This document shows positions 357-57,203 of a stretch of 64,000 nucleotides of DNA, piece after piece (the stretch's first letter is position 1; the number at the start of each line of letters is the position of its first letter). The notes under the pieces were generated by a model that made no database searches, had not been told where the DNA came from, and saw nothing but the letters and a program-made list of their open reading frames with translations. The position numbers and the translations under genes are program-made. The stretch is from an uncultured bacterium. Lineage in GTDB: Bacteria > DAOPZR01. The DNA lies in NCBI GenBank assembly GCA_964517215.1, contig CAZFBR010000001.1, positions 24,907-88,906 on the forward strand, in the 5' to 3' direction.

Positions 357-387
357 CTGTTGTTCTGACGGGCGCGCAAGCCGGCGC

Positions 388-1108
388 ACGATGCCGGAGC
401 GCGGGTCCGCAGTCAGGTTCATCCCGGAGAATGCCCAGAAGCGCGGCCATTCCCTGCCGGCGCTGGGATATTTGCGCTCCAGCGCGTTCGGCAATTCCAT
501 GCCGGGCAAGTTGCGCAGCCGGTCGCGTTCAAACCGGCGCCGCACGTTCTGCAGATGGCGCTCCCAGTCGGGCCGCAGCGATTCCGGCAGTACGGTCTGC
601 CGGTCCTTGTTCCCCTTGCCGGCGCGCATTGTGAGCACGCCGCGGTCGAAATCAACATCCGTGATGCGCAGCAACAGGCACTCCCGCAGTTGCAGTCCGC
701 ACCCGTAAATCATCCGTGCCATCAGCGCGGACATGCGGGGCATGCGCGTGGTTATCCTGCCGATTTCCGCATGCGTCAGCACCACCGGCAGTCGCCGCCG
801 CTCCGGTGCGCGCACTGGAACCGTTTAGGTCGGTTGGATTGCGGCCGAGGCAGTGGCACAGGAAGAACAGCAGGGCATTGAAGGCCTGGTTCTGGGTTTT
901 CGCAGACACCTGGCGTTCTCCTGCGATAAAAGACAGGTAATTGCGCACATCGGCGGAAGTCACTCCCTGCGGCGGCCGCTCATTGTGCCAGTGCCGGAAC
1001 TGCCGCAGGTAGGCGAGGCAGGTTCTCCGTCTGCGGCGACAACTGCCTGATGCGGATGATACGCCGCATTTCCGCGACGACGGCATCCCAGCGCAGCACA
1101 TCCGCCAT
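388..1108 (-). pseudogene. intI: Integron integrase (IntI-type tyrosine recombinase) remnant: at least two frameshifts, C-terminally truncated (ends after ...DPRSGIVRR; no HxxR/Tyr catalytic box)
   Basis: Reverse-strand translation in three frames gives an N-terminal segment (RRIIRIRQLSPQTE), a SAM-like core-binding segment (AYLRQFRHWHNERPPQGVTSADVRNYLSFIAGERQVSAKTQNQAFNALLFF), then a catalytic-domain segment (RLPVVLTHAEIGRI...LQLRECLLLRITDVDFDRGVLTMRAGKGNKDRQTVLPESLRPDWERHLQNV...LPNALERKYPSAGREWPRFWAFSGMNLTADPRSGIVRR). The ALERKYP...WPxFW block is the insertion specific to integron integrases. Confidence 0.7.
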
Positions 1109-1572
1109 CGACGGTACGGGGACCGATTCGGCGGCAGTGCGGTCTGCTGCCGGCGCGGAGGGCTGGCTGGCACGGTAATAGAGAAACAGGCGCACGGTTT
1201 CCCCCTGCCTGTTTTACCTGCCATGGTGCCTTGATGCGTCCAAGTTCATCAAGGAATTGCTGCAGTTCCTGCGGGGCGTTGCCGCTGGCGGCAGGGACGT
1301 GGCGATACCGCAGGAACAAGTCGATCCAGTATTGATAGAATCTCAACTTCTTGTCAGGAACATGGTGGACTGTGAGGTAATTACCTACTGCGGCTTGTTC
1401 ATCTGGTATCAGTGCTTGTCCCATAGTTATTCCCCTTTTTTGTGGATCAACCCTATACGGGTCTAATATACGGGCGCTGCATGATTTTCACCTCCGTTCA
1501 ATATTATCCTCCCACTGCCATAACATCCTTTCCAGCAAATAATAACAGTATCTATAACATTTCATTAACCTA

Positions 1573-1601
1573 TTGACATTCAACCCACCCAGTGGTACAA
1601 T
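1573..1601 (+). promoter_or_regulatory. Consensus sigma70-type promoter TTGACA-17bp-TACAAT (Pc-like cassette promoter candidate)
   Basis: TTGACA at 1573-1578, 17-nt spacer, TACAAT at 1596-1601; about 40-70 bp upstream of the first cassette ORF and divergent from the intI remnant. Confidence 0.5.
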
Positions 1602-1637
1602 CTAAAAATACGCTGTTATTCTACGGTTCTGTACAAT

Positions 1638-1964
1638 ATGAATGTTAGGCAGTGGATAGAGATAGTGATGACTGCGGATGAAAAGATGGAATGGCCAATT
1701 TGGAAATGCACAGCATTGACCGTCATGTTGTGTGGTGCTCCGGTCTTTGCGTCACCTTTGGGGTTCTCAATAATATCGGTTTTGATTTGGATGCTGCTGA
1801 TTATTATCTATGCCGGAATATTAAAAGTATTTGGTTCTAGTTTTGTGATAGAAGGCGCGATCATCGTACTTGTTATAGCGACTCTTGTTTTTGCGGGCGC
1901 GAAATATTTTACAAATAACCTTCAAGAACAACCCGCGCAACAAGAGATGACAAGCAATGCCTAA
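1638..1964 (+). CDS. Small integral membrane protein (3 predicted TM helices), integron-cassette-like; alternative start at 1668
   Basis: ORF in an AT-rich region; hydrophobic segments (LTVMLCGAPVFASPLGF, ISVLIWMLLIIIYAGIL, AIIVLVIATLVFAGA); its stop codon TAA lies inside the RYYYAAC box of the following attC-like repeat. Confidence 0.5.
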   Translation: MNVRQWIEIVMTADEKMEWPIWKCTALTVMLCGAPVFASPLGFSIISVLIWMLLIIIYAGILKVFGSSFVIEGAIIVLVIATLVFAGAKYFTNNLQEQPAQQEMTSNA

Positions 1965-2024
1965 CTTCGCGCCGCACCACGTTGGCGAAAGACGCGCCGA
2001 CGCGGTGAGCGCTATTCGTTGGCA
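1959..2024 (+). repeat. attC-like recombination site 1 (imperfect palindrome GCCTAAC...GTTGGCA)
   Basis: Begins GCCTAAC (RYYYAAC inverse core), ends GTTGGCA (core-like), internal imperfect dyad; about 80% identical in its ends to the second site at 2673-2736 (shared AACTTCGCG...GAGCGCT-N-TCGTTGGC). Confidence 0.5.
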
Positions 2025-2037
2025 TCCAAGAAATCAC

Positions 2038-2066
2038 TTGACATATAACGTTATACGGTATATAAT
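2038..2066 (+). promoter_or_regulatory. Consensus sigma70-type promoter TTGACA-17bp-TATAAT upstream of higB
   Basis: TTGACA 2038-2043, 17-nt spacer, TATAAT 2061-2066; ATG of higB at 2073. Confidence 0.55.
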
Positions 2067-2072
2067 GGAATT

Positions 2073-2360
2073 ATGATAGAGGATTTCCGGTGCAAAGAAA
2101 CCGAAAGGATCTTTCGGCGCGAGTATTCGCGGAAGTTGCCTGCTGGTATTCAGCGGGTTGCTTTGCGAAAATTACGAATGCTGAATCGGAGTTCGACCAT
2201 CGAAGACCTCCGCGTTCCTCCGGGGAACCGGTTAGAAGCCCTTTCCGGCAATCGGAAAGGCGAACACAGCATTCGAATAAATGATCAATGGCGTATTTGC
2301 TTTGTTTGGCGGAATGGTGACGCCCACGCCGTAGAGATCGTGGATTATCACAGGGGGTGA
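2073..2360 (+). CDS. higB: HigB-family toxin (RelE/ParE superfamily, plasmid maintenance system killer protein)
   Basis: 95 aa; LRVPPGNRLEALSGNRKGEHSIRINDQWRICFVWRNGDAHAVEIVDYH matches the HigB_toxin family signature; precedes the antitoxin with a 3-nt gap. Confidence 0.85.
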   Translation: MIEDFRCKETERIFRREYSRKLPAGIQRVALRKLRMLNRSSTIEDLRVPPGNRLEALSGNRKGEHSIRINDQWRICFVWRNGDAHAVEIVDYHRG

Positions 2361-2363
2361 ACT

Positions 2364-2660
2364 ATGAAAAAGATTCCGGTTGTACATCCAGGCGAGATAC
2401 TAAACGAGGAGTTTCTCAAGCCTCTGAACATCAGCCAAAACCAACTCGGCAAAGGACTCGGTGTATCCGCCCGAAGAATCAATGAAATCATCCACGGCAA
2501 ACGCGCCATCACAGCGGATACCGCACTAAGGCTATCTAGGTATTTTGGCAATTCCGCTAGTTTTTGGCTGGGTCTGCAAATGGACTACGAGCTCGATATG
2601 GCCGATGATGCCCTCGCCTCACGTATCAACAGGGAAGTCCAGCGCCTGAAGGTCGCATGA
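2364..2660 (+). CDS. higA: HigA-family antitoxin (XRE-type HTH)
   Basis: 98 aa; PGEILNEEFLKPLNISQNQLGKGLGVSARRINEIIHGKRAITADTALRLSRYFGNSASFWLGLQMDYEL is the canonical HigA HTH. Confidence 0.85.
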   Translation: MKKIPVVHPGEILNEEFLKPLNISQNQLGKGLGVSARRINEIIHGKRAITADTALRLSRYFGNSASFWLGLQMDYELDMADDALASRINREVQRLKVA

Positions 2661-2672
2661 CGACACAGCGGT

Positions 2673-2736
2673 GCCAACTTCGCGTTGCGGCGCTTCGCCG
2701 CTGGCGCGGATCAACGCAGAGCGCTCATCGTTGGCC
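2673..2736 (+). repeat. attC-like recombination site 2 (GCCAAC...GTTGGCC), paralog of site 1
   Basis: Starts 13 bp after the higA stop; GCCAACTTCGCG...GAGCGCTCATCGTTGGCC; dyad ends GCCAAC/GTTGGC. Confidence 0.5.
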
Positions 2737-2957
2737 GTATGAAGACGACAATTAGATTATGAGATAAAATGAAGAATTGATGAATTCGGAAATACGGGCA
2801 TTCTTACATCGTACGCGCGAGGCAAGTGGCTTCCGGACAAAAACGGAAAGGCGGAAATCGCCAGGTTGCGGCAGCATGCTCACTCGACCCTGCAAAAGAG
2901 TAAAAGGATAAACACAGTACCGCATCCCTTACGCACGGATCACAGAAAGCTCATCTG

Positions 2958-2986
2958 TTGACGCAATGTAAAAACTGTGATAAAAT
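2958..2986 (+). promoter_or_regulatory. Strong sigma70-type promoter TTGACG-17bp-TAAAAT upstream of tRNA-Cys
   Basis: TTGACG 2958-2963, 17-nt spacer, TAAAAT 2981-2986; tRNA starts at 3073. Confidence 0.45.
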
Positions 2987-3072
2987 CAATGATTGTACGG
3001 GTCGTGGTGTCGCTGCCCGGGCCGCTGGTCGGCCGGCGGGCGGCGGCGGTTTATCCCGCGACAGCGTAACGA

Positions 3073-3148
3073 GGCGGCGTAGCCAAGTGGCTAAGGCGAC
3101 GGTTTGCAAAACCGTTATTCACCGGTTCAACTCCGGTCGCCGCCTCCA
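3073..3148 (+). tRNA. tRNA-Cys (GCA), CCA encoded
   Basis: 76 nt; 7-bp acceptor stem GGCGGCG/CGCCGCC, anticodon stem ACGGT/ACCGT with loop TTGCAAA (anticodon GCA), T-arm ACCGG-TTCAACT-CCGGT. Confidence 0.85.
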
Positions 3149-3173: not shown

Positions 3174-3761
3174 ATGACTGACGAAGGCCGTCGCGTCTAT
3201 TCCAATAGCGAACGCGAAAAGATGGACCGCGGACAGAGTTTGATCCCGGATCTGGTGGAAAGCTTGTGGGTGGAGAAGCGCCGCCTGTATGCCCTGCGCG
3301 AGCTGCTGGTCAAGAACAACGTTGCCACCGCGCTGGAGCTGATCAATGACCTGCTGAAAATCAAGCAGGCGCGCGCGGACCGCAAACGGCCGCCGTTGTG
3401 GATGCAGTTTACCACCAGCGACGGCGTGCTGGTGGCGCGCGGCCAGACCACCGGCTACAATGAAAACGGGCTGGGGGCGCGAGTCGACTTTTTCTGGCAG
3501 GACAAGACCGCCTCCACCAAGGCCTCGGACCTGGCGGAACGGCCGGGCACGGTGGTGCTGTACTGCCCGCCCGGCGAATACTATCCGTACCCGCTGCCGG
3601 CAAAGCTGCTGCGGGTCGAGGCCTGCAATTCGCTGGAGCGCAAACAGGCGTTCGTTGCCATCGAGTTCACCCCGCCCATCATGAGCGACCTGCTTGAGGC
3701 GCTCACCGATTGGGCGGAGCAATGCGAGCGCTATCAGGCGCAGCAGCACGAAGGCAAGTAA
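3174..3761 (+). CDS. Hypothetical protein (196 aa) between two tRNA genes
   Basis: ATG at 3174 preceded by AAGGAG; the longer six-frame ORF from 2958 would overlap tRNA-Cys, so the internal start is used; no recognisable domain. Confidence 0.4.
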   Translation: MTDEGRRVYSNSEREKMDRGQSLIPDLVESLWVEKRRLYALRELLVKNNVATALELINDLLKIKQARADRKRPPLWMQFTTSDGVLVARGQTTGYNENGLGARVDFFWQDKTASTKASDLAERPGTVVLYCPPGEYYPYPLPAKLLRVEACNSLERKQAFVAIEFTPPIMSDLLEALTDWAEQCERYQAQQHEGK

Positions 3762-3775
3762 CCATGTCCACCCGC

Positions 3776-3851
3776 GGGCTCTTAGCTCAATGGTTAGAGC
3801 ATCGGACTCATAATCCGGCGGTTCTGGGTTCAAGTCCCGGAGGGCCCACCA
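3776..3851 (+). tRNA. tRNA with CAU anticodon (elongator Met or lysidine-type Ile2; not initiator), CCA encoded
   Basis: 76 nt; acceptor GGGCTCT/AGGGCCC, D-arm GCTC-AATGGTTA-GAGC, anticodon loop CTCATAA, T-loop TTCAAGT; the G1-C72 pair excludes initiator; resembles E. coli ileX-type more than metT. Confidence 0.8.
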
Positions 3852-4070: not shown

Positions 4071-4832
4071 GTGGCGATGCTCGAAATGGCCGGGGTGTAT
4101 ACCACGCTGGAGCACAAGGAAGTGCTGCGCGGTGTCAGCTTTTCCGTCGCTGACGGCGAAACCCTGGTCATCATCGGCCGGAGCGGCACCGGCAAGAGCG
4201 TCATCCTCAAGCATCTCATCGGCCTGATGCATCCGGACCGCGGCGCCATTTTTGTCGGCGGGACCGATATTGCCGCCTTGCGCGGCCCGGCGCTGCGCAC
4301 CGCCTGCCGCCCGGTGGCGATGCTGTTCCAGAACGGCGCGCTGTTCGATTCGCTGCGGGTGTGGGAAAACGTCGGCTTTCACCTGCTCGAGAATCTTGAC
4401 CGCCCGGTGGCGGAGGTGCAGCGGGTGGTGCGCGAAAAGCTGGCGCTGGTCGACCTGCACGGCGTCGAGCAGCTCATGCCGGCGGAACTGTCGGGCGGCA
4501 TGCGCAAGCGGGTGGCGCTGGCGCGGACGCTGGCACTGGAACCGCGGGTGCTGCTGTGGGATGAACCGACGTCGGGGCTTGATCCGGTGACGTCGGACAT
4601 CATCAACCGGCTGATCGTGCGCACGCGCGAGCAGCTCGGCCTGACGTCGGTGGTCGTCACCCACGACATGACCAGCGCCTACCAGGTCGGGCAGCGGATC
4701 GCCATGCTGCATGCAGGACGCATTCACACCATCGGCACCCCGGACCGCATCCGCGCCACCACGGATCCGGTGGTGCGGCGGTTTATCACCGGCGATGCCA
4801 GCGATCTGGTCGCCGCCGGGAACGGGGAATAG
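4071..4832 (+). CDS. mlaF: ABC transporter ATP-binding protein, MlaF/Mce-type
   Basis: Walker A GRSGTGKS, signature LSGGMRKRVALARTL, Walker B LLWDEPTSGLD; directly followed by an MCE-domain protein. Confidence 0.8.
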   Translation: MAMLEMAGVYTTLEHKEVLRGVSFSVADGETLVIIGRSGTGKSVILKHLIGLMHPDRGAIFVGGTDIAALRGPALRTACRPVAMLFQNGALFDSLRVWENVGFHLLENLDRPVAEVQRVVREKLALVDLHGVEQLMPAELSGGMRKRVALARTLALEPRVLLWDEPTSGLDPVTSDIINRLIVRTREQLGLTSVVVTHDMTSAYQVGQRIAMLHAGRIHTIGTPDRIRATTDPVVRRFITGDASDLVAAGNGE

Positions 4833-4835
4833 GTC

Positions 4836-5924
4836 ATGGACGAACAGCACCAGTTGAAAGTCGGCATCACGGTGATCGTCGGGTTCATCCTGCTGGCCGC
4901 GATCATCTTCATGGTCAGTGATTTCCACCTGCTGACGCCGGGCTCGACCTTTTTCGTCACCTTCAACTTCGCCAACGGCCTCGCCGAGGGCGCCCCGGTC
5001 ATGGTCGCCGGCGTCGAGGTGGGAACGGTCGAGGCGATTGATTTTGTCACCGACAACCAGGGCAACACCCGGGTGCAGCTGACGGTGTGGGTCAACCGCC
5101 GCGCGCGGGTGTTCCGCAACTCCAAGGCCTTCATCAACACCCTCGGCCTGATGGGGGAGAAATACCTCGAAATCACCACCGGCGAAGGCGGGGAGCAGCC
5201 CATCCGCGAAGGGGATGTGCTGGCCGGCACGGACCCGATCCGCCAGGACGAGATCCTGTCGCGCGGGGCGGAACTGGTGCGCGAATTCCAGTCGTCGGTG
5301 GCGGCGGTGAACTCCATTCTCGGCGAGGCGGGCACCCGCGACGACATCCGCAACACCCTGCACAACATGAACAACATCTCGCGGCGGATCGACAGCATCA
5401 TCGAGAAGAACGAGGGGAGCATCAACACCTCGCTGGCCAACTTCGGCCAGGCGTCGACGCGCCTCAACAGCACGGTGCAGACCTTCGACCGCATGATCAC
5501 CGGCAACGAAAAGGGGCTGACCGAGTCGATCCAGAATTTTTCCACCGGGATCGGCGAACTGCGCCTGATGGTCAGCGAAAACCGCCCCGGCCTGACCCGC
5601 GCGGTGCAGGACTTCCAGACCTTCTCGGGCGACCTGGCGGCCCTCACCCACGGCAACCGCGCCACCCTCGGCACAACCATCACCAACGTCGGCGAGGCGA
5701 GCGGCAACCTCAAGGGGGTGCTGGAGAAGATGGATGCGGTGCTGACCCGGATCAACAGCACCCAGGGCACGCTGGGCATGCTGCTCAACGATGCGACGGT
5801 GGGGAACAACCTGCGCAAGTCGTCGCAGGACCTGCGCGAGATGATCGCCTACGTCAAGTACCGGCCCTGGCTGCTCTACCGCAGCAGCGACGAGCCGCTC
5901 CGATACGGCACGGAAGAGCCATGA
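4836..5924 (+). CDS. mlaD: MCE-domain protein (MlaD-like) with long C-terminal helical extension
   Basis: N-terminal TM helix plus MCE fold (FFVTFNFANGLAEGAPVMVAGVEVGTVEAIDF); 362 aa. Confidence 0.75.
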   Translation: MDEQHQLKVGITVIVGFILLAAIIFMVSDFHLLTPGSTFFVTFNFANGLAEGAPVMVAGVEVGTVEAIDFVTDNQGNTRVQLTVWVNRRARVFRNSKAFINTLGLMGEKYLEITTGEGGEQPIREGDVLAGTDPIRQDEILSRGAELVREFQSSVAAVNSILGEAGTRDDIRNTLHNMNNISRRIDSIIEKNEGSINTSLANFGQASTRLNSTVQTFDRMITGNEKGLTESIQNFSTGIGELRLMVSENRPGLTRAVQDFQTFSGDLAALTHGNRATLGTTITNVGEASGNLKGVLEKMDAVLTRINSTQGTLGMLLNDATVGNNLRKSSQDLREMIAYVKYRPWLLYRSSDEPLRYGTEEP

Positions 5925-7300
5925 CCGCCAAAAAGGCGCGGGTTGCATTCTTCTGCAGCGACTGCGGCGCCACGGCGCCCGGCTGGCTGGGCCGCTGTCC
6001 CGGCTGCGGCAAGTTCAACACCATGGTCGAGGCGCCGGCCGCGGCCGCGCCGCATCGCGCCCGCGCCGCGGAACGGCCGGCCGCGCGGGCGCTGACCCTC
6101 AGCCAGATCCCCGCCGACCAGCTGGACCGCTGGGACACCGGCTTCGGCGAGCTCAATCGCGTGCTGGGCGGCGGGCTGGTCCCCGGCTCGCTGGTGCTCA
6201 TCGGCGGCAGTCCGGGGATCGGCAAGAGCACGCTGCTGCTGCAGGCGGCGGCGGCGCTGGCCGGGCGCGGCAAACAGGTCCTCTACGCCACCGGCGAGGA
6301 ATCGGCCGGCCAGCTGGCGCTGCGCGCGCGGCGGCTCGGCATTGCGGATCCGCGCCTGCGCGTCATCGCCGAAAGCGACCTGGCGCAGATTTTTTCCGCC
6401 GCGGACGGCTGCGAGCTGCTGGTGCTCGATTCCATCCAGGCGGTGTTCCATCCCGACGTGCCCGCGCTGCCCGGCACGGTCAGCCAGATCCGCGAATGCA
6501 CCGCGCAGCTGGTGGACTGGGCCAAGCCGCGCAACACGGCGGTGTTCATCGTCGGACACGTCACCAAGGAGGGCGCGCTGGCGGGCCCGCGGCTGCTCGA
6601 GCACATGGTGGACACGGTGCTCTATTTCGACAGCGACCAGCAGCTGTTCCACCGCATCATCCGCGCGGTCAAGAACCGCTTCGGCGCCACCAATGAACTC
6701 GGCATCTTCCGCATGGTCGAGGGCGGGCTGGAGGAGGTCAGCAACCCGTCCGACCTGTTCATCAACCAGCGCCCGGAACCGATTGCCGGGACCGCGGTGG
6801 CGGCGGTGATGTCCGGTTCCCGCCCGCTGCTGTGTGAAGTGCAGGCCCTGGGCGTGCCCACGGTCTTCGGCAATCCGCGGCGGGTGGCGTCGGGCATCGA
6901 CTACAACCGCCTGCTGATGATCCTTGCCGTGCTCGAACGCCGGGCCGGCATCCCCGTCAGCACCCGTGATATCTACGTGTCAGTCACCGGCGGGCTGCGG
7001 GTCAGCGACGATCCGGGCGCGGACCTGGCGGTGGCGCTGGCCGTGGTTTCGCACCTGCGCGACCGGCCGCTGCCGGTCGGGCTGGCCGCCATCGGTGAAC
7101 TGGCGCTGTCGGGCGAGATCCTGCCCGTGCTCGGCGGCGAGACCCGGCTGCGGGAAAGCGCCAAACTCGGGTATACCCGCGCGGTCGGACCCGCGCGGCA
7201 CATGGGCGACAAGCATCCGCTCCCGTATGCAGGAGCGTATAATCTGCACGCGGCCCTGGCGGCCGCGGAACTGTTGACGAAAGGAGGTACCGACGCATGA
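5921..7300 (+). CDS. radA: DNA repair protein RadA/Sms
   Basis: N-terminal Zn ribbon CSDCGA...CPGCGKFNT, RecA-like Walker A GGSPGIGKST, KNRFG motif, Lon-like C-terminal domain; start ATGA-overlaps the mlaD stop. Confidence 0.9.
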   Translation: MTAKKARVAFFCSDCGATAPGWLGRCPGCGKFNTMVEAPAAAAPHRARAAERPAARALTLSQIPADQLDRWDTGFGELNRVLGGGLVPGSLVLIGGSPGIGKSTLLLQAAAALAGRGKQVLYATGEESAGQLALRARRLGIADPRLRVIAESDLAQIFSAADGCELLVLDSIQAVFHPDVPALPGTVSQIRECTAQLVDWAKPRNTAVFIVGHVTKEGALAGPRLLEHMVDTVLYFDSDQQLFHRIIRAVKNRFGATNELGIFRMVEGGLEEVSNPSDLFINQRPEPIAGTAVAAVMSGSRPLLCEVQALGVPTVFGNPRRVASGIDYNRLLMILAVLERRAGIPVSTRDIYVSVTGGLRVSDDPGADLAVALAVVSHLRDRPLPVGLAAIGELALSGEILPVLGGETRLRESAKLGYTRAVGPARHMGDKHPLPYAGAYNLHAALAAAELLTKGGTDA

Positions 7301-8220
7301 GTACCATGAACACCGCCCTGGTCGGCTATCTGGTAGCGGCAGCGACGCTGCTGCTGGCCATCGGCGGCATGCTCTGCTGGCGGCGCCTGCCGGTGCGCGA
7401 TATAATCATCCGCTGCACCGGCGGCGTCATCGGGCTTATCATCAGCAATCTTCTGCTGTTTTCCGTTATCCGCTTTCTGCCCGTCCCGGCTGCGGTCTGG
7501 TTTCTGCTGCATCTGCTGTTCCTCACGTGCGGGGCCATGGTGGCGGCGGCCAAGCGGGAGGAGATCTGCCATCTGCTGCCCGTCCTCTCCGAGCACCCGG
7601 ACAGCGATCACATCGCCCCCAAGGTGCTCGACACCAGCGTGATCATCGACGGGCGCATCATCGACGTCTGCAAGAGCCGGTTTATCGAGGGCGATTTGCT
7701 GGTGCCGCGCTTCATCCTGCGCGAACTGCAGAACATTGCCGATTCCGCCGACAATCTGCGCCGCGCGCGCGGCCGGCGCGGTCTCGACATCCTCAAACAG
7801 CTGCAGCAGCATCCCGACCTGACGGTGCGGGTGACGGAGCAGGATTATCCCGAGGTGCACGAGGTGGACGGCAAGCTCATCCGGCTCGCGCAGCAGCTGT
7901 CGGCCTGCATCCTCACCAACGACTACAATCTCAACAAGGTCGCCGGCCTGCAGCAGGTCACCGTGCTCAACCTCAATGACCTGGCCAATGCGCTCAAGCC
8001 GGTGGTGCTGCCCGGCGAGGAAATGCGCATCCAGGTCATCAAGGACGGCAAGGAGGCAGGCCAGGGGGTGGGGTATCTCGACGACGGCACGATGGTGGTC
8101 GTGGACAACGGCAAGCCGCAGATCGGCCGCACCGTCAAGGTTACCGTCACCAGCATCATCCAGACCTCGGCCGGCCGGATGATTTTCACCCGCTTCGGCG
8201 ACGCCCCGGGTGAACGATGA
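7297..8220 (+). CDS. yacL: PIN/TRAM-domain membrane protein YacL-like
   Basis: N-terminal TM helices, PIN domain (VLDTSVIIDGRI), C-terminal TRAM (GRTVKVTVTSIIQTSAGRMIFTRF); conserved radA-yacL-ispD-ispF order. Confidence 0.75.
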   Translation: MSTMNTALVGYLVAAATLLLAIGGMLCWRRLPVRDIIIRCTGGVIGLIISNLLLFSVIRFLPVPAAVWFLLHLLFLTCGAMVAAAKREEICHLLPVLSEHPDSDHIAPKVLDTSVIIDGRIIDVCKSRFIEGDLLVPRFILRELQNIADSADNLRRARGRRGLDILKQLQQHPDLTVRVTEQDYPEVHEVDGKLIRLAQQLSACILTNDYNLNKVAGLQQVTVLNLNDLANALKPVVLPGEEMRIQVIKDGKEAGQGVGYLDDGTMVVVDNGKPQIGRTVKVTVTSIIQTSAGRMIFTRFGDAPGER

Positions 8221-8894
8221 CCCTGGCGGCGATCCTCGTTGCCGCCGGGCAGAGTTCCCGGTTCGGCGGCGGCGTCAGCAAGGTGCTGCGCCGCTGCGGT
8301 GACCTGCCCCTGATCGCCCATGCGGCGCAGGCCCTGCTGGCGGCCGACGGCCTGACGGAAGTGGCGGTGGCCGCGCGGCCGGAGGACTGCGCCGCGATCG
8401 AAACCGCACTGGCGTTCCTGCGCGACCGCGGCCTGCGGCTGGCCGTGGTGGCGGGCGGCGCCGAACGCCAGGACAGCGTGGCAAACGCGCTGGCGGTCCT
8501 GACCCCGGCGGTGACCCACGTCATCGAGCATGACGCCGCCCGGCCGTTCCCGCCCGCCGCCCTGGTGGCGCGCGTGGTCGCCGCCCTTGCGGCGCACGAT
8601 GCCGTCATCCCGGTCATTCCCGTGGTGGACACCATCAAGGAGGTGGCCGGCGACACCGTGGTCCGCACTCCGGTGCGCAGCGCGCTGCGCGCGGTGCAGA
8701 CCCCGCAGGGTTTTCGCCGGACGCTGCTGGCGGCGGCGCTGGCGGCGGCGCAGCGCGACCGCGTCACCGGCACCGACGATGCCATGCTGGTTGAACGCCT
8801 GCAGCTGCCGGTATACTGTGTGGCCGGTGATCCGGCCAATCGCAAAGTCACCACCCAGGAGGACAGCCAATGGCTTCCGCATCCGCTCACGTAG
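8217..8894 (+). CDS. ispD: 2-C-methyl-D-erythritol 4-phosphate cytidylyltransferase
   Basis: AAGQSSRFGG, VIEHDAARPF, VQTPQGFRR motifs. Confidence 0.9.
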   Translation: MTLAAILVAAGQSSRFGGGVSKVLRRCGDLPLIAHAAQALLAADGLTEVAVAARPEDCAAIETALAFLRDRGLRLAVVAGGAERQDSVANALAVLTPAVTHVIEHDAARPFPPAALVARVVAALAAHDAVIPVIPVVDTIKEVAGDTVVRTPVRSALRAVQTPQGFRRTLLAAALAAAQRDRVTGTDDAMLVERLQLPVYCVAGDPANRKVTTQEDSQWLPHPLT

Positions 8895-9361
8895 GCATCG
8901 GTTTCGATGTTCATCGCTTCTGCACCGGCCGCCCGCTGCTGCTGGGCGGGGTCAAGGTCAACTACCCGCAGGGCCTCGCCGGCCACTCCGACGCTGATGT
9001 GCTGCTGCATGCGATCAGCGACGCCATTCTCGGCGCGGCCGGCCTCGGCGACATCGGCCAGCATTTTCCCGATACGGACCAGAAATGGAAGGACGCCGAT
9101 TCCGGCCTGCTGCTCAAGGTCGTGGTGGCCAAGGCGCATGCCGCCGGCTGGCAGGTGGGCAATATCGACGCCACCGTCATCTGCGAGGAGCCGAAAATCG
9201 CCCCGCTGCGCGAGGCCGTGTGCGCCCGGGTGGCGGAACTGGCCGGCATTGTTCCCGCCGCGGTCAATATCAAGGGCAAAACCACCGAGCACCTCGGGTT
9301 TCTCGGACGCTGCGAGGGCATCGCTGCGCAGGCTGTGGTGCTGCTCGAACGGCTGCCGTGA
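8870..9361 (+). CDS. ispF: 2-C-methyl-D-erythritol 2,4-cyclodiphosphate synthase
   Basis: GIGFDVHRF, GHSDADVLLHAISDAILGA, DIGQHFPDTDQKWKDADS motifs. Confidence 0.9.
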   Translation: MASASAHVGIGFDVHRFCTGRPLLLGGVKVNYPQGLAGHSDADVLLHAISDAILGAAGLGDIGQHFPDTDQKWKDADSGLLLKVVVAKAHAAGWQVGNIDATVICEEPKIAPLREAVCARVAELAGIVPAAVNIKGKTTEHLGFLGRCEGIAAQAVVLLERLP

Positions 9362-50115: not shown

Positions 50116-50928
50116 ATGAGCGCCGCCGGCTCCGCGCCGCTGCTGACTGCCGTCGGCCTGGCCATGACCTACCGGCGCAAGCATACGGATATTCCCGTGC
50201 TGCACGGTGTCAATCTGGCGCTGCATGCCGGCGAGGAACTGCTTATCGTCGGGGCGAGCGGCACCGGCAAAACGACGCTGCTCAACCTGCTGTCGGGTCT
50301 GGAGCGCCCGACGGCCGGTACGGTCAGCTATCGCGGTCAGGTGCTGGCGACGCTGAGCGACCGGGAACGGTCGCGGCTGCGGGCGGAGCAACTGGGGTTT
50401 GTTTTCCAGCTGCATCACTTGCTGGGTGAATTCAGCGCCCTGGAGAATGTCATGCTCCCCGCGCTGGCGGCGGGGATGACCCGCGCCGCGGCGCGGGCAC
50501 GCGCGGCTGAACTGCTGGACCGGGTCGGGCTGAGCCGGCGCGGCGAGCATTTTCCCGCACAGCTGTCGGGCGGCGAATCGCAGCGGGTGGCGGTGGCGCG
50601 GGCGCTGGTGAACCGCCCGGCGCTGGTCATGGCCGACGAACCGACCGGCAACCTGGACTGGGCGAGCGGCCATCAGGTTATCGACCTGCTGCGCGAGCTG
50701 GTGCGGGAGCGGCAGGGCGCCTTCCTGCTGGTTTCGCATGATGACCGGTTGTGCCGCGAGCTGCCGGTGCGCCGGCTGGCGGCAGGGATTCTGCAGCCGC
50801 CGGCGGAATCGCCGGCGGGAACAGGCGCGGGGCCGGTTGCGGGGTGCGGCGGCGGCCCTGACGTGCAGGCGGCCGCGGGGTCAGCGTGCGGCGGCGGGGC
50901 GACTGACGGGGGAAAGGGAACGGCATGA
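50116..50928 (+). CDS. lolD: Lipoprotein-releasing system ATP-binding protein LolD (with ~50-aa C-terminal extension)
   Basis: GASGTGKTTLLN, LSGGESQRVAVARAL, MADEPTGNLD; LolD-type D-loop. Confidence 0.8.
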   Translation: MSAAGSAPLLTAVGLAMTYRRKHTDIPVLHGVNLALHAGEELLIVGASGTGKTTLLNLLSGLERPTAGTVSYRGQVLATLSDRERSRLRAEQLGFVFQLHHLLGEFSALENVMLPALAAGMTRAAARARAAELLDRVGLSRRGEHFPAQLSGGESQRVAVARALVNRPALVMADEPTGNLDWASGHQVIDLLRELVRERQGAFLLVSHDDRLCRELPVRRLAAGILQPPAESPAGTGAGPVAGCGGGPDVQAAAGSACGGGATDGGKGTA

Positions 50929-51443
50929 GCGAAAAAAACTGCGAACACTGCCACGAGCGGCCGGCCACGATCCGCATCGTCCAGCAGCTCGGCGACAAGG
51001 TGACCAAGCACAGCTTTTGCGAGACCTGTGCCGAAAAGCTGGGGATCACCGGTGACGGCATGAATTTTTCCCTCGCCAACCTGCTGACGGCGTTTGCCAA
51101 TCTCGACAGCGTGACCGAGGCGGCGGCGGAACCGGAAACGGCATGCGCCTGCGGCCTGACCTTTCCCGAATTCCGCGAGAGCGGCCGGCTCGGTTGCGCG
51201 CAGTGCTACACCACCTTCGCGCCGCGGCTGGCCCAGCTGCTGCGCACCATCCACGGCAGCACCGAGCATCGCGGCAAGTGTCCGCGGCGGCGGGCGGCGG
51301 CGGTCTCGCGCAATCGCGAGCGGCTGCGCCTGCAGGCGGATCTGCGCGACGCGGTGCGGCGCGAGGATTACGAAACCGCGGCGCGGCTGCGCGACACCAT
51401 CCGCGGACTGGCGCCGGATGAAGCCCCGGAGGAACGCGCATGA
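50925..51443 (+). CDS. mcsA: McsA-like protein-arginine kinase activator (Zn fingers plus UVR domain)
   Basis: CEHCHERPA...FCETCA and CACG...CAQCY cysteine pairs; UVR motif LRLQADLRDAVRREDYETAARLRDTIRGL. Confidence 0.75.
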   Translation: MSEKNCEHCHERPATIRIVQQLGDKVTKHSFCETCAEKLGITGDGMNFSLANLLTAFANLDSVTEAAAEPETACACGLTFPEFRESGRLGCAQCYTTFAPRLAQLLRTIHGSTEHRGKCPRRRAAAVSRNRERLRLQADLRDAVRREDYETAARLRDTIRGLAPDEAPEERA

Positions 51444-52483
51444 TCGAGCAACTGATGCGCGGCAGCGGGGAGTGGCTGGCCGCGCAGGGTCCGGAATCGG
51501 ACATTGTGCTCACCAGCCGGGTGCGGCTGGCGCGCAACCTGGCGGACCAGCCGTTTGCCAGCCGGGCCGACGAGGCCACCGCGCAAGCCACCCGCGAGCA
51601 CATCCTCGCGGCGGCGCGCGACACCACCCAGCTGGCGGGCGCCCTGTATTTCGATCTGCCGCACACCCCGGAGAGCGAACAGCAGCTGCTGGTCGAGCGC
51701 CACCTGATCAGTCACAACCTGCTGACCGCGACCGCGGGCGGCGCGCTGGTCAAGCCGGGCGAAGCGGCGTCGGTGATGATCAACGAGGAGGACCACCTGC
51801 GGATCACCGCGTTTGCCTCGGGCCTGCAGCTGGCGCGCACCCTTGAGGCGGTCAATGAGATCGATGATGCGCTCGACCAGCGGCTCACCTTTGCCTTCCG
51901 CGACGACTGGGGCTACCTGACCGCCTGCCCGACCAATGTCGGGACGGGCCTGCGTGCGTCGGTGCTGGTGCATCTGCCCGGGCTGATCCTCTCCAAGCGG
52001 ATCAACACGGCGATCAAGGGGATTTCGCATCTCGGCCTGACCGTGCGCGGCTACTATGGCGAGGGGACGGACAGCATCGGCGACTTCTTCCAGATTTCCA
52101 ACCAGGTGACGATGGGCAACAGCGAAAGCGACCTCATTGCCACCATCACCGAAGTCACCCAGCGCATCATCAAGAACGAGCTGACGGCGCGCCGGCAGCT
52201 GTATGTGCGCCAGCGGCTGAAATTGGAAAACCGCGTCTGGCGCGCGCTCGGGCAGCTGCGCAGCGCGCGGCTGCTTCCCGCGGAGGAGGCGATGGAGCTG
52301 CTGTCGGCGCTGCGGCTGGGGATCAGCATGGGGATTATTCCGGACATCGACGTGCACCTGCTGAATGAGGTGTTCCTGCTCATTCAGCCGGCGCATGTGC
52401 AGTATTACGGCGGCAGCGAGGCCAGCGGCGAGCAGCAGGCCTGGCTGCGGGCCAGGCTGGTGCGCGAGAAACTGGCCGGCTGA
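51440..52483 (+). CDS. mcsB: Protein arginine kinase McsB (ATP:guanido phosphotransferase)
   Basis: SRVRLARNL, EEDHLRI, CPTNVGTGLRASV phosphagen-kinase motifs. Confidence 0.85.
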   Translation: MIEQLMRGSGEWLAAQGPESDIVLTSRVRLARNLADQPFASRADEATAQATREHILAAARDTTQLAGALYFDLPHTPESEQQLLVERHLISHNLLTATAGGALVKPGEAASVMINEEDHLRITAFASGLQLARTLEAVNEIDDALDQRLTFAFRDDWGYLTACPTNVGTGLRASVLVHLPGLILSKRINTAIKGISHLGLTVRGYYGEGTDSIGDFFQISNQVTMGNSESDLIATITEVTQRIIKNELTARRQLYVRQRLKLENRVWRALGQLRSARLLPAEEAMELLSALRLGISMGIIPDIDVHLLNEVFLLIQPAHVQYYGGSEASGEQQAWLRARLVREKLAG

Positions 52484-52504
52484 CGCCGGCCTGCGGAGAG
52501 GATT

Positions 52505-55012
52505 ATGGCGGATTTTCACTATCAGGGGTTTACCCCGCGGGCGAAAAAGCTGGTGCATATCGCCCAGAACCTCGGCATCACGCTGGGGGTGCGGCGGATG
52601 GGCGACGAGTTTCTGCTCTTTGCCATCCTGAAGATGGGCGAGGGCCTGGCGTTTGATGCGCTGCGCCAGCTGGAGGTCGAGCCCGGGCAGCTGACCCGCG
52701 AACTGGAGCAGTTCATCCGCGAGAAATACCAGACCGAGGCGAACCTGCTGGAAACGCCCGATTTCGGGCCGACCGCGGCGCGGCGGCTGCAGTCCTGCGC
52801 GCAACTGGCGGTCGGACTCGGCCAGGATTATGTCGGGACCGAGCATATTCTGCTGGTGCTGCTCAAGGGCGGGGGGACGCATACCGCGCAGCTGCTGGCC
52901 AAATACGGCATTGACTTCGAGAAGGCGCGGGCGGTGATTTTCCGTTTTCTGGGCGCGGCGGGCAAGTCCGCGCCGGACGAGCGGGCGGAAGCGGAGGCGG
53001 AGGACGAGGAGGAGGAGGACAAGCCGCGGGCCCACGGCCCGGCGGGGCTGCCCCCCGGCGCGCGCAAATCGCTGGTGGCGCAGTTTTCACGCGACCTGAC
53101 CAAGCTGGCGGAGGACGGCAAGCTCGACCCGGTGATCGGGCGCGAGAAGGAAATTGCGCGGCTGGAGCAGATTCTGTCGCGGCGGACCAAGAACAACCCG
53201 GTGCTGATCGGTGATCCGGGGGTGGGCAAGACGGCGATTGTCGAGGGGCTGGCGCAGCGCATTGTGGCGGAACAGGTGCCGCAGGGCCTGCGCGGCAAGC
53301 GGCTGCTGACGCTCGACCTGGCGGGGATCGTGGCGGGGACCAAGTACCGCGGGCAGTTCGAGCAGCGGCTGAAGTCCATTCTCGCCGAGCTGATTGCCAA
53401 GCGTGACGCGATCGTTTTCCTCGACGAACTGCACACCATCATCGGCGCCGGTTCGGCTGAAGGCTCGATGGATGCGGCCAACCTGCTCAAGCCCGCGCTG
53501 GCGCGCGGCGAACTGCAGTGCATCGGCGCCACCACCCTGGATGAATACAAGAAGTACATCGAGAAGGATGCCGCGCTTGAGCGCCGGTTTCAGCCGGTGA
53601 ATGTGCCGGAACCGACGGTTGAGGAGACGGTCGCCATCCTGCGCGGGCTGCGCCCGCGCTACGAGGAGCATCATCGCGTGGCGGTGGCTGACGACGCGCT
53701 GGTGGCGGCGGCGCGCCTGTCGAAGCGCTACCTCAGCGACCGTTTTCTGCCCGACAAGGCGGTGGACCTGATGGATGAGTCCTGCGCGCGGCTGCAGCTG
53801 GCGACGCGCACCGGGCCGGACGAGCGGGAGCAGCTGGCTGCGCGACTTACGGAGATCGAAGGCGAAAAGCGGAAGGCCATCAACGAGCAGGATTACGAGC
53901 GGGCGGCGGAGCTGCGGGACGAAGAAAAGGTCGTGCAGCAGCGGCTGGTTGAGCTGGGCGACACTCCGCCGGCTGGCGACCGGCCGACGGTAACGGCCAC
54001 CGATATTGCCCGGCTGATCGCGCAGTGGACGGGCATCCCGGTGGACAGCATCACCGAGGCGGAGGGTTCGAAGCTGCTGCGCATCGAGGACGAATTGCGC
54101 AAGCGCGTGATCGGCCAGGAGGAGGCGATCAGCGCGGTGGCCAAAGCCATCCGCCGGGCGCGGACCGGGCTCAAGGACCCCGCCAAGCCCGCGGGGACGT
54201 TCCTGTTCCTCGGCCCGACGGGCGTGGGCAAGACCGAGCTGGCGCGCGCCCTGGCGCTGTTCCTCTTCGGCGAGGAAGAGGCGCTGATCCGCATCGACAT
54301 GAGCGAGTTTGTGGAGAAATTCGCCGTCTCGCGGCTGACCGGGGCGCCCCCGGGCTATGTCGGTTACGAGGAGGGGGGGCAGCTCACCGAGGCGGTGCGC
54401 CGCCGGCCGTTCGCGGTGGTGCTGCTGGATGAGATCGAAAAGGCGCATCCCGATGTGTTCAACATCCTGCTGCAGGTGCTTGACGACGGCCAGCTGTCGG
54501 ACAATCTCGGCCACACGGTTGATTTCAAGAACGCCGTGGTCATCATGACCTCAAACGTGGGCGGGCGGGACATCGCCAAGGGCGGGGGCGGGGTCGGGTT
54601 TATCGGCGACAGCGACGCCGCGTCGTTCGCCCGCCTGAAGGAGAGCGCCCTGTCGGAACTGAAGAAGACCTTCAACCCGGAGTTTCTCAACCGGCTTGAC
54701 GAGATCATTGTCTTCCATCCGCTTGACCACCGGCATCTGCGCGCCATCCTCGACATCATGCTGCATGACCTTGAGGAGCGGCTGACTGCGCAGGAGCTGC
54801 GGCTGGAACTGACTGACGCGGCCAAGGAACTGCTGGTTACCAAGGGTGACGACCGCAAGTACGGGGCGCGGCCGCTGCTGCGCGTGCTGCGCCGCGAGAT
54901 CGAGGAACCGCTGTCGCTCAAGCTGCTGGAGGGGAGCTTTGTAGCCGGTGATGTTATCATCGGCGATGCCGGCGACAATGCCCTGATCTTCAGCACGAAG
55001 CCCTCCGCCTGA
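52505..55012 (+). CDS. clpC: ATP-dependent Clp protease ATP-binding subunit ClpC
   Basis: Clp-N repeats, AAA1 [11 protein letters not shown] linker, AAA2 GPTGVGKT, ClpB_D2-small. Confidence 0.9.
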
Positions 55013-55026
55013 CCGGGCCCAACGGC

Positions 55027-56418
55027 ATGCTGGCGCGCGCCCGACGGATGCTGGCCATTGCGGCGGCCAAACTGGCTTATCATGCCGCCCGGGCCACCGG
55101 TCGCGGCGGCGGGACGGCCTTTCCCGGCCTGGTGGCGCAGGCCCTGTGTCCCGGCCTGCTGGCCGCGCTGACCGGCGGACTGCCGCGCGGCTCGCTGGTG
55201 GTCACCGGCACCAACGGCAAGACGACCACCACGCGCATGCTGTCGGATTCCCTGACGCTGGCGGGTTGGTCGGTGGCGCACAACCGGCACGGCTCGAACC
55301 TGCTGCGCGGGGTCACCGCGGCGGCGGCGCTGCAGAGCACCGCCGCCGGGGTGCTGCCCGCCACCGTCGGGTTGTGGGAAACCGACGAGGCGGCCTTTCC
55401 CGCCATCGTCGCCGCGGTGCAGCCGCGGGTGATTGTCATCACCAACCTGTTTCGCGACCAGCTCGACCGCTACGGCGAGACGGAACAGATCCGCAGCCGC
55501 TGGGTCAGCGTGCTGCCGGCGCTGCCGCGCGCAACCCTGGTGCTCAATGCCGACGACCCGTCGGTGGCCACGCTGGGGGCGGCGCATCCGGGGCCGGTGG
55601 TCTATTTCGGGATCAGCGACGACAGCTGCCGCCAGGCGGGCGACGCCCATGCCAGCGACGTGCGCACCTGCCGGCGCTGCAACGGGACGCTGACCTACCG
55701 CCAGCATTTTCTCAGCCATCTGGGCGATTGGTCCTGTCCCGCCTGCGGCGATCGCCGTCCGGCGCTGACGTTCAGCGCCAGCGCCATCGCCCCGACGCTG
55801 CGCGACTGCTCGTTTCGCCTGACCACGCCGGCGGGAACGCAGCAGATCCGGCTGCCGCTGGCCGGCACGTACAATGTCTACAACGCGCTGGCGGCAATTG
55901 CCGCCGCGAGCGCCCTGGCGCTGGACGCTGCCGGGGCCGTGGCGGCGCTGGCGAAATTCCAGCCCGCCTTCGGCCGCTTTGAACGGCTCGCGGTGGCCGG
56001 TCGCGAACTGTGCCTGTTTCTGGTGAAAAATCCGACCGGCGCCAATGCCGTCCTGCAGACGCTGGCTGCGGCGAACGAGCGGCAGCTCCCGGTGCTGGTC
56101 GCCATTAACGACCTGACTGCCGACGGGCATGATGTTTCCTGGCTGTGGGATGCCGATTTCGAGCTGCTGGCCGGTTGCGCGTCACCGGTGGCGACGGCGG
56201 GCATTCGCGGCGCGGATATGGCGGTGCGGCTGAAATACGCGGGCCTGCCGGCGCCGGCGGTGATGCCGGGCGATGACAGCGGCGAAGCGCTGTATGCCTG
56301 GCTGCAGACCATTCCCGCGGGCGCGACGGCGTACTGCCTTGCCACCTACACCGCCATGCTGGCCATCCAGAAGATGCTCGCCGCGCGCGGCTGCAAGGCG
56401 CCGTACTGGAAGGAATGA
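55027..56418 (+). CDS. murT: Lipid II isoglutaminyl synthase MurT (Mur-ligase family with Zn ribbon plus DUF1727)
   Basis: VTGTNGKTTTTRM, Cys4 ribbon CRRCNG...CPACG, DUF1727-like C-terminus. Confidence 0.8.
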   Translation: MLARARRMLAIAAAKLAYHAARATGRGGGTAFPGLVAQALCPGLLAALTGGLPRGSLVVTGTNGKTTTTRMLSDSLTLAGWSVAHNRHGSNLLRGVTAAAALQSTAAGVLPATVGLWETDEAAFPAIVAAVQPRVIVITNLFRDQLDRYGETEQIRSRWVSVLPALPRATLVLNADDPSVATLGAAHPGPVVYFGISDDSCRQAGDAHASDVRTCRRCNGTLTYRQHFLSHLGDWSCPACGDRRPALTFSASAIAPTLRDCSFRLTTPAGTQQIRLPLAGTYNVYNALAAIAAASALALDAAGAVAALAKFQPAFGRFERLAVAGRELCLFLVKNPTGANAVLQTLAAANERQLPVLVAINDLTADGHDVSWLWDADFELLAGCASPVATAGIRGADMAVRLKYAGLPAPAVMPGDDSGEALYAWLQTIPAGATAYCLATYTAMLAIQKMLAARGCKAPYWKE

Positions 56419-57203
56419 CCATGCCCGGCATCCGTCTCGCTTTTCTCTACCCGGATCTGATGAACATTTACGGTGACCGGGGCAATGTCATTGCGCTGAC
56501 GCAGCGCTGCCGCTGGCGCGGGCTGGAAATCGCGGTCAGCGAGCTCGGGCTGGCATGCGCGCCGGATCCGGATGATTTCGACCTGTATTTTTTCGGCGGC
56601 GGACAGGACCGGGAGCAGCTGACGGTGGCGGAAGACCTGTTGCGGTACAAGGCGGCGGCACTGCGCGCGGCGGCGGCCAGCGGCGCCGCCGTGCTGGCGA
56701 TCTGCGGCGGCTATCAGCTGCTGGCGAACTACTACCAGCCGTTCAATGCCCGGCGGCTCGACGGGGTCGGCCTGTTCGACGCCTGGACTGAGGCCTCGGC
56801 CACCCGGATGATCGGCAATGTCGCCATTGAGCTTGATGCCGCGCTGGCGGCGGAAGCGGGGCAGGTGCGCTCCACGGTGGTGGGGTTCGAAAACCACAGC
56901 GGAAAAACCCGTCTGGGACCCGGCTGCCGGCCGCTCGGCAGGGTGATGCGCGGGTTCGGCAACAATGGCGAAGACGGGTGCGAAGGGGCGATCCAGGGGC
57001 ATGCCATCGGCTGCTATCTGCATGGCTCCCTGCTGCCCAAAAACCCGCATCTCGCCGACCTGCTCATCCGCTGGGCGCTGGAACACCGCTATGGCGCGTC
57101 CGCGCCGGCACTGGCGCCGCTTGCTGACGCGCTGGAATGGCAGGCGCATGCGGCTGCGTTGTGCCGGAAGAAAAGTGCGTTTTCCCGCCGGGAAGGTGCA
57201 TAA
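56415..57203 (+). CDS. gatD: Lipid II isoglutaminyl synthase glutaminase subunit GatD (CobB/CobQ-like GATase)
   Basis: YPDLMNIYGDRGN, ICGGYQLL (catalytic Cys), H-containing C-terminus; ATGA overlap with murT. Confidence 0.8.
   Translation: MTMPGIRLAFLYPDLMNIYGDRGNVIALTQRCRWRGLEIAVSELGLACAPDPDDFDLYFFGGGQDREQLTVAEDLLRYKAAALRAAAASGAAVLAICGGYQLLANYYQPFNARRLDGVGLFDAWTEASATRMIGNVAIELDAALAAEAGQVRSTVVGFENHSGKTRLGPGCRPLGRVMRGFGNNGEDGCEGAIQGHAIGCYLHGSLLPKNPHLADLLIRWALEHRYGASAPALAPLADALEWQAHAAALCRKKSAFSRREGA

Follow-up and report, generated by a model that had tools for sequence, protein, structure and literature searches.

We describe here two look-alike elements in a stretch of 64,000 nucleotides from the genome of an uncultured bacterium (contig CAZFBR010000001.1; the whole stretch is called the window in what follows). 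We consider it very probable that they are the attC sites of two cassettes in a small chromosomal integron whose integrase gene, intI, has decayed. The locus is probably a fossil chromosomal integron, that is, a cluster of attC sites that has no integron integrase (CALIN) with an intI pseudogene beside it. Along the window, in the order usual for integrons, the intI remnant, on the minus strand, is followed by an intergenic attI with a Pc-like promoter and then by plus-strand cassettes, each closed by one site (Table 1). The original prediction, made from the letters of the sequence, had likened the pair to lineage-specific attC families such as VCR and XCR, and this likeness is supported by the intI remnant and the attI upstream of the cassettes as well as by arrays of the same family in a related genome and in metagenomes. 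It had also suggested a larger array broken up by rearrangement; there is no sign of this in the present genome, and the window holds a two-cassette array still joined to the decayed integrase gene.

Both elements quoted in the original prediction were located, at 1959-2025 (site 1) and 2673-2738 (site 2). The composite motif AACTTCGCG-N(35-65)-TCGTTGGC has exactly two matches in the 64 kb, both on the plus strand (1963-2023 and 2676-2735), and is found in none of 100 dinucleotide-preserving shuffles; either half-motif by itself is not unusual, and the significance thus resides in the combination. With a covariance model of the family, built from 18 sites and run with filters off, the next best match in the window scores only 17.9 bits against 65 and 56 bits for the two sites, so the window contains no third copy. 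The motif search and covariance model that had been proposed as a check thus return two copies in the 64-kb window, and further members of the family in a related metagenome-assembled genome (MAG) and in metagenome contigs. The shared flanks that had been claimed comprise 26 identical positions in the two copies, but the accompanying claim of variable centres needs correcting, since the centre of site 2 is a conserved subtype that is near-identical in about half of the members elsewhere. Similarly, the internal GTTGGCG copy pointed out in site 1 does exist but amounts to nothing beyond one arm of the inner hairpin stem. At gathering thresholds, Rfam, which has no attC family, reports only two tRNAs in the whole window, and blastn of each site against 72,556 plasmids returns only chance partial matches (E of 0.1 or more); at blastn sensitivity there is thus no relation to the attC sites of known mobile integrons.

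The integron integrase IntI crosses over at G|TT, so that an integrated attC takes its final six bases from the cassette that follows and, as a consequence, the first six bases of a cassette complement its own R'' box. This rule holds for both cassettes in the window, with TTAGGC (1645-1650) facing GCCTAA(C) and TTGGCA (2019-2024) facing TGCCAA(C). Of 55 non-redundant neighbouring sites in the family, 43 agree at each of the four variable positions of the R box, where shuffling leads one to expect a mean of 5.5 of 55 and reached a maximum of 14 in 2000 trials. The six-base match between a cassette start and its own R'' is what IntI crossover at G|TT leaves behind; the rule is unlikely to have come from tandem duplication of a single unit, as the cassette contents are unrelated. 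The sites also sit at the 3' ends of open reading frames (ORFs), as had been anticipated: the stop of cassette 1 lies within R'', and site 2 begins 11 nt past the higA stop. Stop codons in the family mostly fall 1-50 nt before R'', and the longest ORF lies on the attC strand in 47 of 55 family cassettes, with a median coding fraction of 0.90.

Three pieces of the intI remnant can be recognised on the minus strand: a SAM-like module at the N-terminus (1424-1230), another SAM-like domain (1080-841) and the beginning of the catalytic domain (824-366). The NCBIfam profile TIGR02249, 'integron integrase', is matched at 2.6e-42, with 1080-841 covering profile positions 19-79 and 824-366 covering positions 90-234 of 315, in differing frames. 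The second of these pieces is 47% identical to IntI1 residues 111-249, and the IntI-specific insertion ALERKYPSAGREWPRFWAF aligns with IntI1 residues 213-231; we put the weight mainly on the NCBIfam match. The gene is now spread over three overlapping minus-strand ORF fragments (419-658, 652-1224 and 960-1424), and six-frame translation reveals at least three frame changes. Homology stops at ...DPRSGIVRR, just short of the catalytic histidine/arginine/tyrosine region (HxxR/H/Y); tblastn of the missing C-terminus across the 64 kb finds nothing, and the same 64 kb hold no other integrase. L072, an independent metagenome contig that corresponds to the reverse complement of window 497-2051, carries the frameshifted sequence without a difference. 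An intact integrase ORF with the catalytic R-H-R-Y residues is therefore not what this locus encodes, and it is for this reason that we class the locus as a CALIN with an intI pseudogene.

The two ends of the remnant merit separate comment. At its 5' end, the intI frame opens with an additional SAM-like module, MGQALIPDEQ...KLRFYQYWIDLFLRY...WQVKQAG, upstream of the usual IntI N-terminal domain (window 1230-1424, minus strand; 2017-2223, minus strand, on the related metagenome contig L048), and both the start-codon region and the YWIDLFLR motif are conserved in L048. This module may be a duplicated N-terminal domain in this IntI clade. At the 3' end, a glycine-zipper lipoprotein gene with a YiaD-like N-terminus (15-356) ends 10-25 nt from the end of intI homology (about 366-381); with so small a gap, the deletion of the intI 3' end extends right up to the lipoprotein gene.

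An exact-pattern scan of 185,579 species-representative genomes returned 30 loci, 11 of them from a single uncultured MAG, CAZWUZ01 (GCA_964637655.1, 'binchicken_co154_39'). This genome carries at least 35 strong matches to the covariance model (39-80 bits) over 11 loci or contigs, co-oriented within each locus and spaced 400-1100 bp apart. In all other genomes the pattern matches score no more than 27 bits by the covariance model and include no family member; these 19 genomes (Solirubrobacterales, Phenylobacterium, a Kiritimatiellia MAG and others) yielded chance matches inside genes. The same pattern scan of metagenome contigs gave 52 loci and 75 further members. Two sequence subtypes can be told apart: site 2 belongs to subtype A, whose centre ...CTTCGCCGCTGGCGCGGCTCAA... 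is nearly invariant, and site 1 falls, as a diverged member, into the hairpin subtype B. Among the genomes sampled, the family is shared by two related ones of a deep-branching uncultured lineage and is therefore lineage-specific in the sense in which VCRs are (PMC8352920).

A second integron platform of this kind lies on L048. Its intI remnant is 74% identical to ours over the shared part and has kept the catalytic C-terminus but suffered an internal deletion; a homologous attI follows, and then three cassettes with sites of the same attC family. The boundary rule can be followed there from attI onward (GTTCGCT to AGCGAAC, GTTAGCC to GGCTAAC, GTTATCC to GGATAAC). The attI regions of the window and L048 align as far as ...GTACAATAnGAAnGTT and diverge after GTT. 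The third attC of L048 (within 4080-5620) is broken just after R'' (GGATAAC|GAGACTG...) by an opposite-strand 450-aa transposase gene, apparently the result of an insertion sequence jumping into the site. A third relative, the JGI contig L088 (1-3623), has a 76%-identical IntI fragment abutting three consecutive tyrosine-recombinase genes in an arrangement resembling a 'recombinase in trio', which suggests a third independent disruption of intI in this clade. Neither L088 nor L087, an integron with the next-closest named IntI (51% identical), contains a member of this attC family.

The higBA cassette also recurs in other contexts. On L039 it is 87% identical and keeps the boundaries GTTGGCA and TGCCAAC, but the cassette before it is another one, and on L028 an 88% identical copy, 5'-truncated and with half an attC, closes a CAZWUZ01 array; the cassettes of this family have thus travelled as discrete units. 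The L039 copy has a subtype-B-like attC centre where that in the window is subtype A, so that the same cassette occurs with different centres, and the cassette upstream of it (1075-1390 of the reverse complement) ends with an L'-R' half-attC only (...ACGCAGAGCGCTCATCGTTGGCA). On L028 (1690-2300), an attC R' box is followed at once by sequence homologous to the interior of higB, from window 2212 on, and the cassette's own attC is halved where a GC-rich chromosomal gene starts. Two further contigs, L001 (DAOPZR010000002.1 of GCA_035353495.1) and L033 (ENA ERZ795026 NODE_7440), both start at window 1640, 4 nt before the attI GTT, and belong to the same strain, with 0 mismatches over 10 kb; the breaks at 1640 may be alternative junctions in the population, or an artefact if both assemblies share reads.

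Both sites have the anatomy of attC. An AAC near the 5' end and a GTT near the 3' end of the top strand, able to pair with one another, are present in each, as in 95-97 of the 99 distinct family sites. Site 1 reads, in order, R'' GCCTAAC (1959-1965, holding the TAA stop of the ORF), spacer TTC, L'' GCGC, an imperfect stem-loop, L' GCGC, spacer TATTC and R' GTTGGCA (2018-2024). Site 2 opens with R'' TGCCAAC (2672-2678), the exact reverse complement of the cassette 2 start GTTGGCA, and closes with R' GTTGGCC (2730-2736). Put together as they would be in the excised circle, both sites have R boxes paired over their full 7 bp. For site 1 in this form, the bottom-strand fold (-19.9 kcal/mol) runs from the 7-bp R box through an unpaired 5x3 spacer to a 4-bp L box and a 1x2 asymmetric loop, and ends with a stem of 8 bp, a 1x1 mismatch, a further 4 bp and a loop of 7 nt; the site takes this canonical R-spacer-L-stem-loop form on either strand. 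GCCTAAC and the attI heptamer GTTAGGC conform to RYYYAAC and GTTRRRY.

Several points weigh against our reading. First of all, GTTGGCA, GTTGGCC and TGCCAAC depart from GTTRRRY or RYYYAAC at one to two outer positions, beyond the GTT/AAC. The R-box consensus is loose beyond these triplets (PMC5027507). That of the present family is GGC[T/C/G]AAC / GTT[A/G/C]GCC. Second, the minimum-energy fold of site 2 is branched (-21.7 kcal/mol) and the canonical hairpin forms only under constraint (-16.6); two substitutions relative to the family consensus weaken the canonical stem. Third, a canonical attC has two or three extrahelical bases, usually G ... T, 6 bp apart, on the arm carrying the top-strand AAC. 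The present sites do have a conserved asymmetric loop of 2 nt versus 1 nt beside L'', on the expected arm, but this provides only one net extra base, and the second conserved extrahelical T, 6 bp on, is not evident. Fourth, the local integrase cannot be active, with its frameshifts and the loss of the catalytic C-terminus. Finally, 96.8% of the cells in the proposed R-box, L-box and stem pairs of the 99 distinct sites are standard pairs, but these counts come from an alignment fitted to the proposed structure and hence biased towards it; an unfitted MAFFT alignment of 18 sequences gives the same pairing picture, and slid controls all drop to 4-58% paired. Compensatory changes at three stem pairs over the 99 sites (UA/AU at 60:23; GC with CG, AU and UA; CG and UA), by contrast, speak for our reading.

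If the elements are attC sites, their bottom strand would fold into an imperfect hairpin in which the R box is followed by an unpaired spacer, an L box carrying an asymmetric bulge, a stem and a loop. The integron integrase would bind this hairpin, guided by its asymmetric unpaired features, and would cut between A and C of the bottom-strand AAC, which corresponds to G|TT on the top strand. Recombination of attC with attC would then excise a cassette as a circle, and recombination of attI with attC would insert one at GTTAGGC (1644-1650), behind the promoter-like site; both cassette 1, with its small membrane protein, and cassette 2, with higBA, may have been acquired through such insertion. 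The cleavage chemistry and the order of events in this scheme are carried over from studied systems (PMC5027507, PMC4889954). With the local intI frameshifted and without its catalytic C-terminus, the array would be frozen unless an integrase acts in trans.

Action in trans is the core of the alternative that survives best, according to which the integron is not a fossil and its cassettes are still mobilised by an intact integrase elsewhere in the genome or community, as a live reservoir of the CALIN type. We think this rather unlikely, while noting that CALINs can in principle be served in trans (PMC4889954), that the higBA cassette is found in at least three contexts with conserved boundaries, and that site 1 still folds canonically. 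The breaks of L001 and L033 at window 1640 could likewise reflect alternative junctions, but these contigs may share reads, and L072 crosses the junction without a variant. Furthermore, an intact IntI of this clade was not recovered, the copies in the window, L048 and L088 all being damaged; the window itself offers no second integrase; and the substitutions in site 2 weaken its stem. A very improbable reading is that of generic intergenic hairpins, from a repetitive extragenic palindromic (REP)-like repeat or a Rho-independent terminator family, that resemble attC. The sites are indeed GC-rich imperfect palindromes just past stop codons, but neither has a T-run or a terminator call, and the terminator alternative raised at the outset is thus not borne out; only two copies exist in the 64 kb, both within the integron and without dispersed copies; the four variable R'' bases track the start of their own cassette, for which a terminator or REP would have no reason; and linkage to intI and attI is seen at two independent loci. 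Least credible of all is a local duplication of one hairpin into paralogous copies without recombination function, which would explain the identical flanks but not centres of two different subtypes, each frequent elsewhere, unrelated cassettes between the copies, or more than 100 family members on other contigs. We therefore regard the terminator, REP and local-duplication readings as excluded by the boundary rule, by the intI/attI linkage at two loci and by the lack of T-runs and dispersed copies, and retain the probably fossil integron with two attC sites.

Table 1. Features of the integron locus and its immediate surroundings (window coordinates)
Feature	Position	Strand	Basis and remarks
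intI pseudogene	366-1424	-	TIGR02249; IntI-specific insertion ALERKYPSAGREWPRFWAF; divergent from array
Pc-like promoter site (putative)	1573-1601	+	TTGACA-17-TGgTACAAT, 11/12 consensus positions, extended -10; faces cassettes, away from intI
attI crossover heptamer (putative)	1644-1650	+	GTTAGGC, reverse complement of attC1 R'' (GCCTAAC)
Cassette 1	1645-2018	+	374 bp; hydrophobic 98-108 aa ORF, 1638 (or in-cassette ATG 1668) to 1964
attC site 1 (very probable)	1959-2024	+	Composite motif; family covariance model, 56 bits
Cassette 2, higB-higA toxin-antitoxin	2019-2730	+	712 bp; profile matches; own promoter
Cassette 2 promoter	2038-2066	+	TTGACA-17-TATAAT, perfect sigma-70 consensus, 12/12
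higB	2073-2360	+	PF05015 HigB-like toxin, 1.4e-20
higA	2364-2660	+	TIGR02607 HigA, 3e-32
attC site 2 (very probable)	2672-2736	+	Composite motif; family covariance model, 65 bits; last site of array
Low-GC non-coding stretch	2737-2957		About 220 bp, past last attC; composition
Promoter-like site	2958-2986		Promoter scan; follows low-GC stretch
tRNA-Cys	3073-3148		tRNA search
tRNA-Met	3776-3851		tRNA search

The remaining parts of the locus fit into this frame. Crossover in attI would fall between G1644 and T1645. The putative Pc-like function of the site upstream rests on its sequence; the element is kept in the homologous attI region of L048 (TGGTAcAAT in one, TGGTAtAAT in the other). The product of cassette 1 is a small membrane protein, which has no Pfam, NCBIfam or PADLOC family. 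Within the promoter spacer of cassette 2 lies a 12-nt palindrome, TATAACGTTATA (2044-2055), which is likely a HigA operator, and the same arrangement is found in L039. The stretch past the last attC (2737-2957) gives no covariance-model match, and an inverted-repeat scan of 1400-3100 finds no degenerate attC after 2736; it may be a cassette remnant or the original end of the array. GC content is about 65% in the flanks and 40-53% between 1350 and 3000, with cassette 1 at about 41%. The capture of two cassettes, including a toxin-antitoxin pair expressed from its own promoter, next to an integrase gene now dead accounts for this low-GC islet of the genome. Farther on, between tRNA-Cys and tRNA-Met, there is a 195-aa ORF (3174-3761) for which Pfam, NCBIfam and PADLOC offer no family. 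Gene calls in the other assemblies include it too, and the groundwater contig L089 begins with a homologue of it.

The host belongs to a deep-branching uncultured lineage. Proteins of the window are identical to those of the NCBI MAG GCA_035353495.1. The host ClpC has one close relative, at 80% identity, on CAZWUZ01 in the same mcsA-mcsB-clpC-murT-gatD order, and the next ClpC matches are at most 56% identical and spread over Bacillota, Armatimonadota and Elusimicrobia. RadA is 88% identical to its counterpart on L089, then 65%, then at most 53% to others; the RadA of CAZWUZ01 was not recovered in the search via RadA homologues, and L089 ends before the tRNA-Cys region. The nearest named homologues of ClpC and RadA are 50-56% identical and lie in Bacillota and Armatimonadota. 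Gene orders typical of Bacillota are present at 50925-57203 (mcsA-mcsB-clpC followed by murT-gatD) and 5921-9361 (radA, a PIN/TRAM gene, ispD and ispF), in a genome of 65% GC with MlaF/MlaD-like genes (4071-5924), a combination that bears on the placement of the lineage.

A sedentary chromosomal integron is taken to have more than about 19 attC sites (PMC4889954). The window, with two sites, stays below this number, and the lineage exceeds it through CAZWUZ01, with at least 35 sites on 11 contigs. It is possible, though we hold it only tentatively, that the lineage owns a native sedentary chromosomal integron, with an attC type of its own, an additional SAM-like module at the N-terminus of IntI and over 100 environmental cassettes. 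Only one complete integron is reported for Firmicutes, and integrons are said to be all but missing from Bacillota and Actinobacteria (PMC9024848); the lineage would thus be a rare exception, an integron-rich clade on the Bacillota/Actinobacteria side of the bacterial tree, if the host indeed lies near these phyla. The damage to intI differs from locus to locus, with frameshifts and 3' truncation in the window, internal deletion in L048 and interruption in L088; repeated independent decay, if true, would point to ongoing trans-mobilisation or recurrent domestication.

Our understanding of integrons is unchanged by this finding. It does, however, document an integron lineage in an uncultured, unclassified bacterial clade, and the short list of taxon-specific attC types available for tracing the origins of cassettes grows by one, for which a covariance model and about 110 sites are at hand.

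How does the locus compare with systems already known? First of all, it resembles the VCR (Vibrio) and XCR (Xanthomonas) families in the homogeneity of its attC type, whose R and L boxes and sequence subtypes are conserved, in its co-oriented arrays of mostly single-ORF cassettes, and in its confinement to one lineage (two related genomes and metagenome contigs). It differs from them in that the sequence family is new, without a meaningful blastn match in the 72,556 plasmids or any match in Rfam. VCRs are about 120-130 nt long, whereas the present sites are short (about 61-66 nt), with spacers of 3 and 5 nt. Taxon-specific families show two or three clear extrahelical bases where ours has a single 2x1 asymmetric loop. 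Eleven taxon-specific attC covariance models are available from Ghaly et al. 2021 (PMC8352920), and our host, an unclassified deep-branching bacterium, stands outside the 11 modelled taxa. Second, CALINs with a neighbouring intI pseudogene have been described in 15 of 279 cases (Cury et al. 2016, PMC4889954), and the present locus shares with them no fewer than two attC sites together with an adjoining integrase gene recognisable as a pseudogene. Here, on the other hand, attI and a promoter-like site are still in place before two cassettes, as in a decayed complete integron and not a detached cluster. Third, higBA, relBE and parDE toxin-antitoxin cassettes are known from the Vibrio superintegron (PMC13108822), and as there the higBA pair makes up a single cassette and brings its own promoter, which ordinary cassettes lack; the present pair is part of an array of two cassettes, which offers little to stabilise, and a 5'-truncated higBA copy closes the array of the related MAG. 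Fourth, the attC sites of mobile class 1 integrons (59-base elements such as attCaadA7) are similar in size (57-70 nt), in their AAC/GTT triplets and in their R-spacer-L-stem-loop plan (PMC5027507), but there is no sequence similarity, the present array has no resistance genes, and its setting is chromosomal rather than a transposon or plasmid. Measured against all of these, what is new is the attC sequence family and the host lineage, and possibly also the second SAM-like module at the N-terminus of IntI; elements of this kind are well known, and the locus is an ordinary, though previously uncatalogued, example of them.

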